NCBI RefSeq assembly: GCF_058153355.1
Contig: NZ_CM177019.1
Strand: one strand, 5' to 3'
DNA: 64,000 nt
Shown piece after piece: positions 53,350-56,908 of this stretch. Below the pieces are notes generated by a model. The model was not told the origin of the DNA and did no database searches. It saw only the letters and a program-made list of their open reading frames with translations. Numbering within the stretch: the first letter of the stretch is position 1; each line of letters starts with the position of its first letter. Made by a program: the position numbers and the translations under genes.

Positions 53350-53493
53350 TATTTCCCTACTGGCGTATAACGCTCACCAATTGTTATACGCCATCCTCAC
53401 TAAAAATATAGATTAAATAATATCTGAAAAGCAAAATCACTCCTGTAGAACAGTATTATAATCACCGAAAAATATCATTTAACAGGAGTGTTA

Positions 53494-54423
53494 ATGGCTA
53501 CATTAATGGAAAAAGATGCGCTTTTAAACGGAGCCAGTCAGTGCATCGCGTTTTTATCAAATATCGTTGATAATTGCTCCGTTTCGTCACGTCAGGATTC
53601 AGTCGATGATCTCACACGATTAGTTGGCTATCGCGATTATCTTTATTCCACTCCAGCTGAATTTGTTGATTTTACACAGGGAAAGAGTCACCTTCAGCAG
53701 GTAAGAACTCAATATCAGCGTGAATTCAATAATACTGCACATTCAGAAAATAAAGTATCTTTTGATTCTATTTGGCAGCGTCTGACAAATCATGAAGTCA
53801 CACCGCAACAGCATCCCATTGGTTTTGTTTTAGGTGGGCAACCCGGAGCGGGTAAATCATCGCTGATTGAATTAGCAAAAAGGGAAACAAAGAATAATAT
53901 AATGATTATTAACGGTGATGATTTCAGATTTCTACACCCTGATTTTAATTATATCTACCAAACTCATGGGGATGATTTTGTTACCCATACGGCGAAATTT
54001 TCCGGCGAAACGGTCGAACGAGCAATTGAGAGGGCGATAGTCAGTAAACTCAACATTGTTGTCGAAGGAACATTTCGTAATGCCACTACGCCGCTACAAA
54101 CATTAAAAAAACTCAAAGATGCAGGCTACCAAACAAACGTCATGATAAAAACCACCTCAGCGACGGTAAGCTGGGAAAGCACCAATGAACGGTATAATAA
54201 GGACAAAGAGGCGGGAAATATCGCCCGAAAAGTGGATAAAAACCACCACGATCTCGTCACCGATTTGCTGGCAGAAAATGCCAGCAAGGTGTTTGCTTCG
54301 AACCTGGCAGATAAGTTTGCGGTGTATTCGCGTGAGAAGATGATATTTAGTTCACAAGCGGCAACGAATGACGATATTGCGACGCTTATACAGAAGGTAA
54401 TCAGCGGGAATTCACAAGAATAA
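53494..54423 (+). CDS. zeta-toxin-like P-loop kinase domain protein (orphan, no adjacent epsilon-type antitoxin ORF)
   Basis: 309-aa from ATG 53494 (AGGAG 5 nt upstream); Walker A GGQPGAGKSS about 120 aa in, then conserved Asp-containing segments; AT-rich gene. Confidence 0.6.
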   Translation: MATLMEKDALLNGASQCIAFLSNIVDNCSVSSRQDSVDDLTRLVGYRDYLYSTPAEFVDFTQGKSHLQQVRTQYQREFNNTAHSENKVSFDSIWQRLTNHEVTPQQHPIGFVLGGQPGAGKSSLIELAKRETKNNIMIINGDDFRFLHPDFNYIYQTHGDDFVTHTAKFSGETVERAIERAIVSKLNIVVEGTFRNATTPLQTLKKLKDAGYQTNVMIKTTSATVSWESTNERYNKDKEAGNIARKVDKNHHDLVTDLLAENASKVFASNLADKFAVYSREKMIFSSQAATNDDIATLIQKVISGNSQE

Positions 54424-54455
54424 TAAGGGATGATGGAGTGAAATAACGCCGGGCA

Positions 54456-55256
54456 TCACGTCCGGCGTATCACTGTTTGATACAACAACCCATCCAGCTC
54501 CCTGGCATCTCCATCCCTGCTATCCGGTAACACTGGTGGAATTTCCCCACGCGCCAGTTCCGCACGAATAAACGCATGTAACAAAGGACGGCGCGGACCA
54601 TATTCCGCTTCTCCCGCGCGCTGTTTACGTTCCAGCAGTTCGTCTATTTCTGCGCGTAACGGCGCATCAAGCTCGCTTCCCGCCAGTAACTCGGCAAAGC
54701 GCATTGGCGGCACGCCTTTTCCCGCTTCAACCCAGCGTACGGCCAGCAGCGGACGCAGCACGTAAAAGTATTTTTTCAGTCGAACTTCATCGCCCTGCAA
54801 ATAGTCGCGGAAGTTTTTCTGCGCCATCGAATAGTAATGCCAGCGTGCACGCAACGAAGAAAACCACATTGGGACCATTGCCTTAAGCGCCGTTATCGTT
54901 TCTTCATCTTGTTGATAGACCACCGGAGAATCCAGCCATTCTATCAGCGTCGGATTCGCGCCTTTCAATAATCCCAGCGCCTTACGCCACTCCCAACCGG
55001 AAACATCTAATTCGTCGTCGATGGGCAGCTCGATAACATCGCGCGGCGCCTCCACCCGCAGATACCATTCCAGCGGGTGAACATACAAAAATCGTACATC
55101 GTAGTCGCTGTCGGGAGAGGCAAATCCCCAGCCGCGGCTGCCTGATTCGCAGGCGTACAGCACTTTCACGCCATAGAGACGTTCTATTTCTTTTAACTGC
55201 TGCGATACCCGTTCGCGCATCGCAGCACTGACTCCATTTAATGGCATGTTACTCAC
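54456..55256 (-). CDS. predicted polymerase-beta-superfamily nucleotidyltransferase
   Basis: 266-aa ORF with NTase signature ESGSRGWGFASPDSDYDV (GS-x11-DxD); GTG start overlaps stop of upstream SPFH gene (alternative ATG 9 nt downstream). Confidence 0.6.
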   Translation of the reverse strand: MSNMPLNGVSAAMRERVSQQLKEIERLYGVKVLYACESGSRGWGFASPDSDYDVRFLYVHPLEWYLRVEAPRDVIELPIDDELDVSGWEWRKALGLLKGANPTLIEWLDSPVVYQQDEETITALKAMVPMWFSSLRARWHYYSMAQKNFRDYLQGDEVRLKKYFYVLRPLLAVRWVEAGKGVPPMRFAELLAGSELDAPLRAEIDELLERKQRAGEAEYGPRRPLLHAFIRAELARGEIPPVLPDSRDGDARELDGLLYQTVIRRT

Positions 55257-56380
55257 CCTTTGATATTAACCAACCCATGCAGAACCTGATCCAGACCGCC
55301 AAATACAGAGATGTTATCGATCCGCTCAGCCACTCTCTCCAGCGTTTCCAGTTCTTTTAAGCGTAACGCCACCGGGTTGTTTTCCATGACTTTAGCGGTA
55401 TTGAGTAACGAACGTGTCGCTGCCGTTTCTTCACGCCGACGAATCACATTCGCCTGCGCAGATTTCTCTGCCTCAACCAGCTGCGCGAGGATATTTTTCA
55501 TATCACCAGGCAGGACGATATCTTTCACCCCTAATGAGGCAATCTCCATACCAAATGGCAACATGCGCGATTTCACCTGTTCGCTGACAACGTCATCAAT
55601 GACCTGTTTATCTTCCAGCAACTCATCCAGCGTACGCGTACCTACCGCTTCACGCAGTGCAAATTGCAATTCCCGATACAAATGATCAATCGGCTTCGTT
55701 AACTGACTAAATGCCAATAACACGTCGCTGTAGCGCCAGTTGGCGGCGAGGTTAATCCGCAGATTGACTTTATCTTTCGTTAAGATTTCTTGCCCGCTGA
55801 CTTCCAGTACCTGCAAGCGGGTGTCAACCACTTCAGCTTCAACCAGATGGTTAATTTTCCAGTACGCAGTCAGTCCCGGCAGTAACAGCGCCTGCGTTTC
55901 ACCATCGATTTTCAGTACACCTACGTGCCAGGCCGGAACCTGCACCGTCAGTATCGCATCGCGGCCTTTAACTGCCCCTTTGCGCCGTGGCTGCAATACC
56001 GCATTCATCACCTCCGTTTGAACCTGGACTTGCTGCGTATTCATCCGCACAAGCGTCAAATCATCCTCTACACGCCAGTACAAACGACGCGTTGATGGCG
56101 GCAGGATCTCCAGCAAAATACCGTCCATATACAACGCCCCGGCTTCAGTCTCCGACAAGTCGGCCACCACGCAATATCTTTCCACCCAATCAGGCTGAAA
56201 GCGGCGCAAATAATCCGCCAGCACGTCGGGAACTTCGCTGCCATCGAGCGTAATCAGCAAGACTTCTGGCGTATTTAACCAGGGTAAAAGATGCTCGCCT
56301 GCAGGCAGCACTTTGTAGTAATCGCCATTTCTGGAGAGTAATGCCAGCTGATCTTTTCTTACGCTTATTTTCTTAATCAT
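55253..56380 (-). CDS. SPFH/band-7 (stomatin/prohibitin-like) domain protein without obvious TM anchor
   Basis: 375-aa ORF; C-terminal SPFH-like region (…LDELLEDKQVIDDVVSEQVKSRMLPFGMEIASLGVKDIVLP…) and coiled-coil-like tail; N-terminal ~150 aa of unknown type. Confidence 0.6.
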   Translation of the reverse strand: MIKKISVRKDQLALLSRNGDYYKVLPAGEHLLPWLNTPEVLLITLDGSEVPDVLADYLRRFQPDWVERYCVVADLSETEAGALYMDGILLEILPPSTRRLYWRVEDDLTLVRMNTQQVQVQTEVMNAVLQPRRKGAVKGRDAILTVQVPAWHVGVLKIDGETQALLLPGLTAYWKINHLVEAEVVDTRLQVLEVSGQEILTKDKVNLRINLAANWRYSDVLLAFSQLTKPIDHLYRELQFALREAVGTRTLDELLEDKQVIDDVVSEQVKSRMLPFGMEIASLGVKDIVLPGDMKNILAQLVEAEKSAQANVIRRREETAATRSLLNTAKVMENNPVALRLKELETLERVAERIDNISVFGGLDQVLHGLVNIKG

Positions 56381-56908
56381 TATCTATTCCTTGCTTAACA
56401 GCCGTCGCGGAAGCAGATACGAAGCGACAGGGGAATTCCCTTTTGCCTGTTACCCGGCGTCTTTATCGGCGACGTTATCGGGGATCGCTGACTGCGCAAT
56501 CCCTCATTTTTTATTTAATAAGTTACAACCAGTATTCATTTCAGGAATGAATGCGGGAATCGAGCCCGTAATTGGCGTCAAAGGCTGACGGAACACGCCC
56601 GGAAAACAGCCTGGCCGTTCCTGGTGTGCCGACGGGGTTTAACCCCCTTTGAAATTCAGTATCAACGCAAAAGTGTTATTGCGAGAAGCGTGCCAGAATT
56701 GAGAAATATTTTTAACCAAATGAAAAATAAAGAGTTAATAAATTACTGTTGTTTGTAGGGGGAAAACTTTTTGCTAAATTTTTATCTGTATTTATCGTCA
56801 ATTATCAAGAAAGATAGATATTTAAGAAGGGAACAAAGGAATATTATCAGTTCTGCTTGCAAATGAATTCCCGTACACTGAATCCATCAGCTAACTGAGG
56901 GCACCATC

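Follow-up and report, generated by a model that had tools for sequence, protein, structure and literature searches.

What is encoded by the additional DNA that lies between lysC and yjbD, and does it amount to one genetic system or to more than one? The window analyzed here is the whole stretch of 64,000 nucleotides from NCBI RefSeq assembly GCF_058153355.1 (contig NZ_CM177019.1). At this site it carries three genes that are missing from Escherichia coli K-12, namely a gene for a zeta-toxin-like kinase and, convergent with it, a pair of genes for an SPFH (Band-7) protein of the slipin type and a nucleotidyltransferase. A first-pass annotation had proposed that the three genes were an insertion forming a single undescribed accessory system of toxin-antitoxin or anti-phage character. 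The interval is instead probably made up of two accessory modules, independent of each other, at the 3' flank of lysC, both of known kinds: ezeT, a single-chain toxin-antitoxin gene, and a reduced Band-7/RlaP arm of Rtc RNA repair.

Junctions and gene content

The K-12 derivative BW25113 was used as the reference for the junctions. Homology to BW25113 in blastn (locus L001) stopped at the lysC stop codon (53349) and restarted at 56779. An accessory block of 3,429 bp (53350-56778) with three intact genes and no K-12 counterpart thus occupies the place of 122 bp of K-12; both the length of about 3.4 kb and the absence of the three genes from K-12 were as first annotated. The flanking genes were taken from the six-frame open reading frame (ORF) list as lysC (52000-53349, plus strand) and yjbD (56909-57181, plus strand). 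Within the block, ezeT (53494-54423, plus strand; another possible start is GTG 53488) encodes 309 aa, rlaP (54456-55247, minus strand) encodes a Pol-beta-type nucleotidyltransferase of family PF10127, and the slipin gene (55253-56380, minus strand) encodes a soluble SPFH/Band-7 protein of 375 aa. Pfam returned Zeta_toxin (E-value 6.4e-40), RlaP/PF10127 (2.9e-96) and Band_7 (7e-24) for the three products. ezeT and rlaP are convergent and not co-transcribed. The mosaic composition noted previously was also found, with a GC content of 41% in ezeT, 54% in rlaP, 50% in the slipin gene and 33% in 56680-56908, against 50% for the whole window.

The kinase gene

EzeT of E. coli, reportedly described by Rocker and Meinhart in 2015, is like the kinase of the window in its site, two-domain layout, Walker A motif and catalytic Asp. 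The window protein was 91% identical over 308 aa (27 substitutions) to WP_000212693.1, whose gene occupies this position beside lysC in E. coli S42 and F8704-2. An N-terminal portion of ∼100 aa (the cis-antitoxin region) precedes a Zeta_toxin domain at aa 101-282 (Pfam). This N-terminal extension is collinear with that of WP_000212693.1, and by homology it would have the same inhibitory role. The kinase domain is homologous to those of PezT (5e-31) and zeta (1.6e-26), and its GGQPGAGKS and GDDFR motifs were aligned with PezT K45 (the Walker A Lys) and D66 (Asp). Epsilon/zeta and PezAT share the kinase domain but have a separate antitoxin gene, whereas in EzeT of the window the antitoxin region is fused to the kinase; in the 144 bp gap between lysC and ezeT (53350-53493) there is no ORF of at least 50 aa that could be a separate antitoxin gene.

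WP_000212693.1 is the experimentally validated EzeT, a neighbor of lysC in B1 strains (2023 review, PMC10532202). According to the same review EzeT is a single polypeptide, in which a C-terminal zeta-type UDP-N-acetylglucosamine kinase lyses cells and the N-terminal domain inhibits it in cis (PMC10532202). Judged by sequence and position, the window kinase is an EzeT ortholog. The earlier placing of the kinase among toxin-antitoxin elements is thereby borne out, and the gene falls outside anything undescribed. UDP-N-acetylglucosamine kinase activity, lysis and self-inhibition have been demonstrated with the E. coli ortholog and, given 91% identity and synteny, may be expected of the window protein.

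The slipin and RlaP proteins

In the slipin, residues 1-142 make up a beta-rich N-terminal region, and the protein further comprises an SPFH domain and long helices at the C-terminus. The N-terminus was all beta-strand in an AlphaFold2 prediction, and the 142-aa region gave weak matches, again to the beta-sheets of SPFH proteins (Z ≤5.8). No transmembrane segment was found in the slipin (maximum 19-residue hydropathy 1.13), and the protein therefore differs from the membrane SPFH assemblies (stomatin, HflK/C, QmcA-YbbJ, prohibitin) in having no membrane anchor. It differs also from the SPFH-NfeD pairs, as there is no NfeD partner in the interval and no third gene on the slipin strand. By analogy to other SPFH proteins the slipin may form a soluble ring or cage. 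Its sequence matches that of proteins named E. fergusonii exactly, and the interval is ∼94% identical to typical E. coli, which makes E. fergusonii, and not E. coli B1, the probable host; homologs in Pseudomonas, Burkholderia and Acidovorax were 53-61% identical to it.

RlaP matched PF10127 over its full length (positions 1-248 of the 249 in the model), and the translation contains GSRGWGFASPDSDYD as the Pol-beta motif G[GS]...DxD. Window RlaP was 56-63% identical to RlaP of Pseudomonas and Burkholderia rtc operons (54-63% in the wider comparison with Band-7/b7a-tRNA/RtcB/RlaP systems), and a PDB sequence search found no solved structural relative. The Pseudomonas enzyme (P. fluorescens, P. 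aeruginosa), whose gene lies between rtcB and rtcA, adds 1-2 nucleoside monophosphates to an RNA 3'-OH (2025). RlaP was named after its association with RNA ligases, and a suggested role is to replace the nucleotides that 'smart' ribotoxins take away. The nucleotidyltransferase, first taken for a toxin-antitoxin or anti-phage type, thus belongs to a family that extends RNA 3' ends. The GTGA coupling of the two genes that had been described is present in the sequence when rlaP starts at GTG 55256 (266 aa), but the ATG at 55247 (263 aa), 9 nt downstream, with AAGGGTGAG ahead of it, is at least as good a start and is the one chosen by RefSeq. Whichever start is used, the slipin and rlaP genes are spaced by 0-5 nt.

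Rtc RNA-repair operons in other species

Distant relatives of the slipin were collected by searching 1.84 billion cluster representatives (50% identity), a first search having been filled by near-identical Escherichia proteins. The soluble 375-aa architecture proved to be widespread, the family comprising 542 clusters at E < 1e-30. One genome per species was then scanned, giving 80 related loci in 80 species, and the neighbors of the slipin were typed by tblastn and NCBIfam (RtcR scored 832 bits where the cut-off is 650, RtcB was assigned to its family, and RtcA scored 452 bits). RtcB was found near the slipin in 49/80 loci, a divergent RtcR in 45, RlaP in 25 (following or accompanying rtcB in 21 of these) and RtcA in 17. 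A zeta kinase or EzeT was found near the slipin in none of the 80.

The usual order elsewhere is rtcR, a sigma-54 promoter, a long tRNA-like leader, slipin, rtcB, rlaP and sometimes rtcA. rtcB stands between slipin and rlaP in Phytobacter, Enterobacter, Siccibacter, Providencia and Pluralibacter, and in Enterobacter sp. BIGb0383 the rtcR-slipin-rtcB-rlaP operon adjoins lysC, the lysC riboswitch and pgi, which is the same chromosomal site. An rtcR-leader-slipin-rlaP arrangement with no rtcB in between was present in Superficieibacter, Mangrovibacter, Hafnia and Pseudocitrobacter; since it occurs in four other enterobacterial genera, the rtcB-less layout is recurrent and not a one-off accident. 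In the window interval the ORF list contained no rtcR, rtcB or rtcA, and yjbD occupies the position of rtcR.

The association had been foreseen: Burroughs and Aravind (2016) are cited in bioRxiv 10.1101/312249 as having predicted Band-7 and b7a-tRNA beside RtcB. In P. aeruginosa the SPFH protein PaFlo8 (PA14_60630) is embedded in the rtc locus alongside PaRlaP. The window shares with these Band-7/b7a-tRNA/RtcB/RlaP systems the slipin family, the RlaP family, the position of the putative sigma-54 promoter, and a homologous leader 5' domain and T-arm; it differs in that rtcR, rtcB and rtcA are not adjacent in Escherichia and the cloverleaf is absent. Because EzeT is missing from all of the related loci and ∼200 E. 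coli genomes carry the slipin-rlaP pair but not ezeT, the pair is part of an RNA-repair system and not a partner of EzeT. Literature searches gave no account of an SPFH protein with a nucleotidyltransferase in anti-phage defense and none linking RlaP to Band-7.

Two other Rtc loci were compared. The logic of the Salmonella rsr-yrlBA-rtcBA operon matches that proposed for the window: control is by RtcR/sigma-54, a ring- or cage-forming protein is encoded 5' of where the ligase gene stands, and the operon also encodes a noncoding RNA that mimics tRNA. Its protein, however, is Ro60/TROVE with the RNA after it, whereas the window has an SPFH protein, the RNA before the protein gene and no ligase in cis. 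K-12 rtcR-rtcBA has a similar sigma-54 promoter and similar ATATC/GACGATA repeats ∼100 nt upstream, but its rtcB leader is short (roughly 50 nt) and it has no slipin, no RlaP and no match to the leader model R1 described below.

Several additional features were recorded in the related loci. RNase Z genes lie in or beside several of them (L075 8938-9918; L012 2934-3848; L013 ∼2940; L063 ∼12506) and may be relevant to how the tRNA-like leader is processed. Extra operon ORFs of 120-509 aa, situated among slipin, rtcB and rlaP and with no NCBIfam match, were seen in L014 (7181-7543 and 8782-10311), L045 (7172-7597), L024 (7486-8226) and L075 (7169-8542). In the loci of the bee-gut symbionts Gilliamella and Snodgrassella (L028-L030, L033, L036, L040) the slipin tblastn matches were ∼145 codons longer (1,563-1,566 vs ∼1,125 bp), which suggests that these relatives carry extra sequence near the N-terminus; RtcR and RtcB were present there, with no RlaP and no match to the leader model. 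One Gilliamella genome had three identical slipin copies on different contigs.

The leader RNA

A structured leader RNA of ∼300 nt (56381-56679, minus strand) precedes the slipin gene and is the least-described part of the interval. A consensus of 44 pairs in six helices was calculated with RNAalifold from 12 Enterobacterales sequences. On the minus strand of the window these are H1 (56650-56632), H2 (56630-56592) around H3 (56619-56605), H4 (56568-56554), which looks like a tRNA T-arm with the loop CTCGATT, and H5 (56474-56403) around H6 (56458-56419). Across the alignment 93.8% of cells paired, compared with 44-50% in controls in which the partners were slid by 1-3 columns. Compensatory double changes were found at 32 pairs, compared with 8-12 in the slid controls, and 0/500 shuffles reached the observed values. 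The window leader forms 42 of the 44 consensus pairs.

A covariance model (R1) was built of the leader 5' domain and T-arm. It matched 57/80 slipin loci, 43 of them outside the seed, in every case on the slipin strand and upstream of the slipin. The window gave a single match (56553-56653, 79.4 bits) and the K-12 rtc locus none. In an R1-fitted alignment of 38 species, which leans towards the model, 92% of cells paired against 39-51% in slid controls. No Rfam 15 family covered the leader with E-values up to 10 tried, Y RNA families included, and a scan of the interval returned the lysC lysine riboswitch and noise; the interval also has no Ro60 gene.

In beta- and gamma-proteobacterial loci the Rfam tRNA model and ARAGORN both recognized a cloverleaf element, or two, within the leader, often with a loop of 3-4 nt instead of an anticodon loop. 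The Enterobacterales leaders, that of the window included, have lost the cloverleaf, and the T-arm and the flanking structured domains remain. Tandem tRNA-like genes were observed in Pseudomonas and Burkholderia leaders, with canonical D- and T-arms and 3-4-nt loops (e.g., GAAA) at the anticodon position (L017 5579-5646 and 5645-5717; L047 5575-5647 and 5643-5714; also L015, L019, L021, L026 and L057); these elements cannot decode, because they have no anticodon loop. Cyanobacterial slipin loci (L059, L064, L066, L067, L069-L073, L084) gave weak R1 matches of 19-31 bits ∼0.8-3 kb upstream, and within ∼6 kb they contained no RtcB, RtcR or RlaP. The pairing of RNA and slipin may predate the link to the ligase or extend beyond it.

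The putative promoter and RtcR site

A putative sigma-54-type promoter, TGGCACGCTTCTCGCA, is located at 56680-56695 (read as 56695-56680 on the minus strand), 315 nt 5' of the slipin ATG, with the pattern TGGCAC-N5-TCGCA. It resembles the K-12 rtcBA promoter TGGCACGACGGTTGCA. A sigma-54-type pattern was found 310-680 nt 5' of the slipin in 34/80 related loci. About 100 nt 5' of the promoter is a block of TTATC/GATAA repeats (56779-56822, minus strand), which aligns with a block adjoining the rtcR start codon in eight Enterobacterales loci; a similar block is present in the K-12 rtcR-rtcB intergenic region (L088 9590-9630). By these alignments the repeat block is a candidate RtcR enhancer (upstream activating sequence, UAS). 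Lying just beyond the deletion junction discussed below, it was kept by K-12 (L001 from ∼2173), where it is found 5' of yjbD although the promoter that it would serve is gone.

Distribution, selection and history

Occupancy was counted over 5,426 complete E. coli genomes. The whole block was present in 1,424, ezeT in 1,433 and slipin-rlaP in 1,631, so that the block is accessory and variable, and missing from K-12, as the first-pass annotation had supposed. The core rtcB-rtcR locus, tallied separately from the block, was present in 4,838 of the genomes (89%), and regulator and ligase are therefore usually available in trans.

Synonymous divergence (dS) and the ratio of non-synonymous to synonymous divergence (dN/dS) were calculated between the window and E. 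coli S42. The values were dS 0.18 and dN/dS 0.22 for ezeT, 0.22 and 0.105 for rlaP, and 0.21 and 0.028 for slipin; for the flanks they were 0.16 and 0.032 for lysC, and 0.21 and ∼0 for yjbD, which had no non-synonymous changes. As dS of the three genes (0.18-0.22) is close to that of lysC and yjbD (0.16-0.21), the block diverged in step with its flanks. The dN/dS values indicate that it is under purifying selection.

Within the 122 bp of K-12 there is a collinear 26-nt stretch (L001 2131-2156), of which 23/26 positions are identical to the leader 3' domain (window 56447-56472); this remnant suggests a deletion scar. Taken together, the flank-like dS, the Enterobacter operon at the same site and the K-12 remnants indicate that the block is ancestral and the K-12 state a deletion. 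The K-12 state is accordingly best read as loss of an older block, and the polarity implied by the earlier term 'insertion' is reversed for the block as a whole. The term fits only ezeT, which from its low GC content looks like a later insertion.

The ezeT-less slipin-rlaP genomes that were inspected had a P2-like prophage between lysC and rlaP, at the position of ezeT. The lysC-yjbD gap is a prophage hotspot (E. coli KK19-02, N-01 and GN25; L002, L086, L003), and in GN25 a prophage remnant and IS1 are present in place of the entire block. PHROG families 25145 and 14344 matched EzeT and RlaP near end to end (3.5e-177 and 8e-120); they were probably seeded from prophage predictions overrunning this hotspot. 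A search for the block on mobile elements gave no phage record, and the only PLSDB 'plasmid' records that bear it, NZ_OL790696.1 (4.8 Mb) and CP061233.1 (1.0 Mb), are evidently chromosomal sequence.

Proposed mechanism and alternative explanations

Under the two-module reading, the C-terminal kinase of EzeT would phosphorylate UDP-N-acetylglucosamine and so block peptidoglycan synthesis, with the N-terminal domain restraining the kinase in cis. On the opposite strand the sigma-54 promoter and the repeats resembling an RtcR site would drive the leader, then slipin, then RlaP. By analogy with Rtc systems elsewhere, core RtcR may switch this module on in trans upon tRNA cleavage, and the slipin may oligomerize, as SPFH proteins do, to a ring or cage that, with the leader RNA, serves as a scaffold. 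RlaP could then put 1-2 nucleotides back on trimmed RNA 3' ends before core RtcB reseals them. Historically, an Rtc-type module older than Escherichia would have occupied the site and lost rtcR, rtcB and the tRNA cloverleaf, low-GC ezeT would have been inserted alongside, and K-12 and ∼70% of E. coli would later have deleted both modules.

Three observations weigh against this account. The window leader on its own folded no better than shuffles (z = -0.59), and the evidence for leader structure is therefore entirely comparative. The cloverleaf that defines a b7a-tRNA was absent from the window leader (ARAGORN, Rfam) and from 10 other Enterobacterales leaders. The -12 element of the putative promoter is TCGCA, not TTGCA.

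The three genes could alternatively make up a single undescribed toxin-antitoxin or anti-phage system, with the kinase as effector and the SPFH/nucleotidyltransferase pair as sensor of infection or neutralizer of the kinase. They are adjacent and occur together in 1,424 E. coli genomes at a hotspot that also takes prophages, and a toxin-antitoxin cassette is found downstream of the Salmonella rtc operon too. This explanation is nevertheless very improbable and is largely refuted by distribution: a zeta kinase accompanies none of the related slipin loci, and the ∼200 E. coli genomes noted above have slipin-rlaP without ezeT. EzeT is moreover self-contained and already characterized, convergent orientation leaves no co-transcription with the other two genes, and their GC content differs (41% vs 50-54%). 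PADLOC (PADLOC-DB v2), run on four proteins, had no model matching slipin or RlaP, and the kinase gave one weak P-loop match (E = 0.0049), with no domain passing. Neither the single three-gene unit nor its novelty, as first put forward, is thus upheld: the kinase is EzeT and the SPFH/nucleotidyltransferase pair belongs to the Band-7/b7a-tRNA/RtcB/RlaP RNA-repair system. A kinase and a nucleotidyltransferase by a prophage hotspot make a defense reading tempting, and it is the distribution across species that separates the two modules cleanly.

Two further explanations concern the slipin-rlaP pair. The first, that the pair has no function and is decaying after its rtc operon lost ligase and regulator, would agree with the lack of rtcR, rtcB, rtcA and a tRNA cloverleaf in the interval and with loss of the module from ∼70% of complete E. 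coli genomes. It is unlikely, as both ORFs are intact, slipin is constrained like lysC (0.028 vs 0.032, at dS ∼0.2) and rlaP has a ratio of 0.105; 42/44 leader pairs, the promoter and the UAS-like block have all been kept, and the layout without rtcB has been stably maintained in Superficieibacter, Mangrovibacter, Hafnia and Pseudocitrobacter. Somewhat less unlikely, though still doubtful, is an autonomous RtcB-free unit of leader, slipin and RlaP, for example a ribonucleoprotein (RNP) cage within which RlaP would tag or repair the 3' ends of tRNA-like substrates, or a leader serving as decoy or sensor for anticodon nucleases. The unit lacks an adjacent rtcB in five enterobacterial genera, and the association of R1 with slipin (57/80, cyanobacteria included) is wider than that of slipin with RtcB (49/80). 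The 3-4-nt loops of leaders elsewhere would also leave an anticodon nuclease no anticodon loop to cut. RtcB is, however, encoded elsewhere in 89% of E. coli genomes, so the missing adjacent copy says little, and published RlaP data put RlaP upstream of ligation.

The reading of two modules of known kinds, a published toxin and a predicted RNA-repair system, is therefore retained. A more far-reaching proposal for the leader is offered tentatively as a possibility. The leader would represent an uncatalogued, phylum-spanning RNA family, consisting of a 5' three-helix domain and a T-arm minihelix with or without a b7a-tRNA cloverleaf, and of a long 3' domain in Enterobacterales. It would be the obligate partner of the slipin in a cage like that of Ro60 and Y RNA and, with RlaP, would be independent of a cis ligase or regulator in Escherichia. 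If this leader-slipin RNP exists, the function of the Band-7 arm of RNA repair should be tractable in natural E. coli strains. The slipin-RlaP-leader unit, intact and under strong constraint but minus the ligase, is present in about 30% of complete E. coli genomes. The literature yielded no experimental test of a role for Band-7 and tRNA-like RNA in RNA repair, a question open to simple E. coli genetics. The leader itself is a covariation-supported RNA outside the Rfam families, whose 5' domain tracks the slipin family from Enterobacterales to cyanobacteria.

Other features of the interval

Scanning for consensus promoters and terminators yielded a number of sites below the chance expectation. 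Where ezeT and rlaP converge, a GC-rich hairpin (54446-54468; ACGCCGG/CCGGCGT, 7 bp, 9-nt loop) was read off the sequence between them; it overlaps the stop codon of rlaP and might act as a terminator. It was not called by the consensus scan because its loop is 9 nt. The lysine riboswitch (51712-51908, plus strand; Rfam RF00168, 99.5 bits) lies 5' of lysC and is ordinary.

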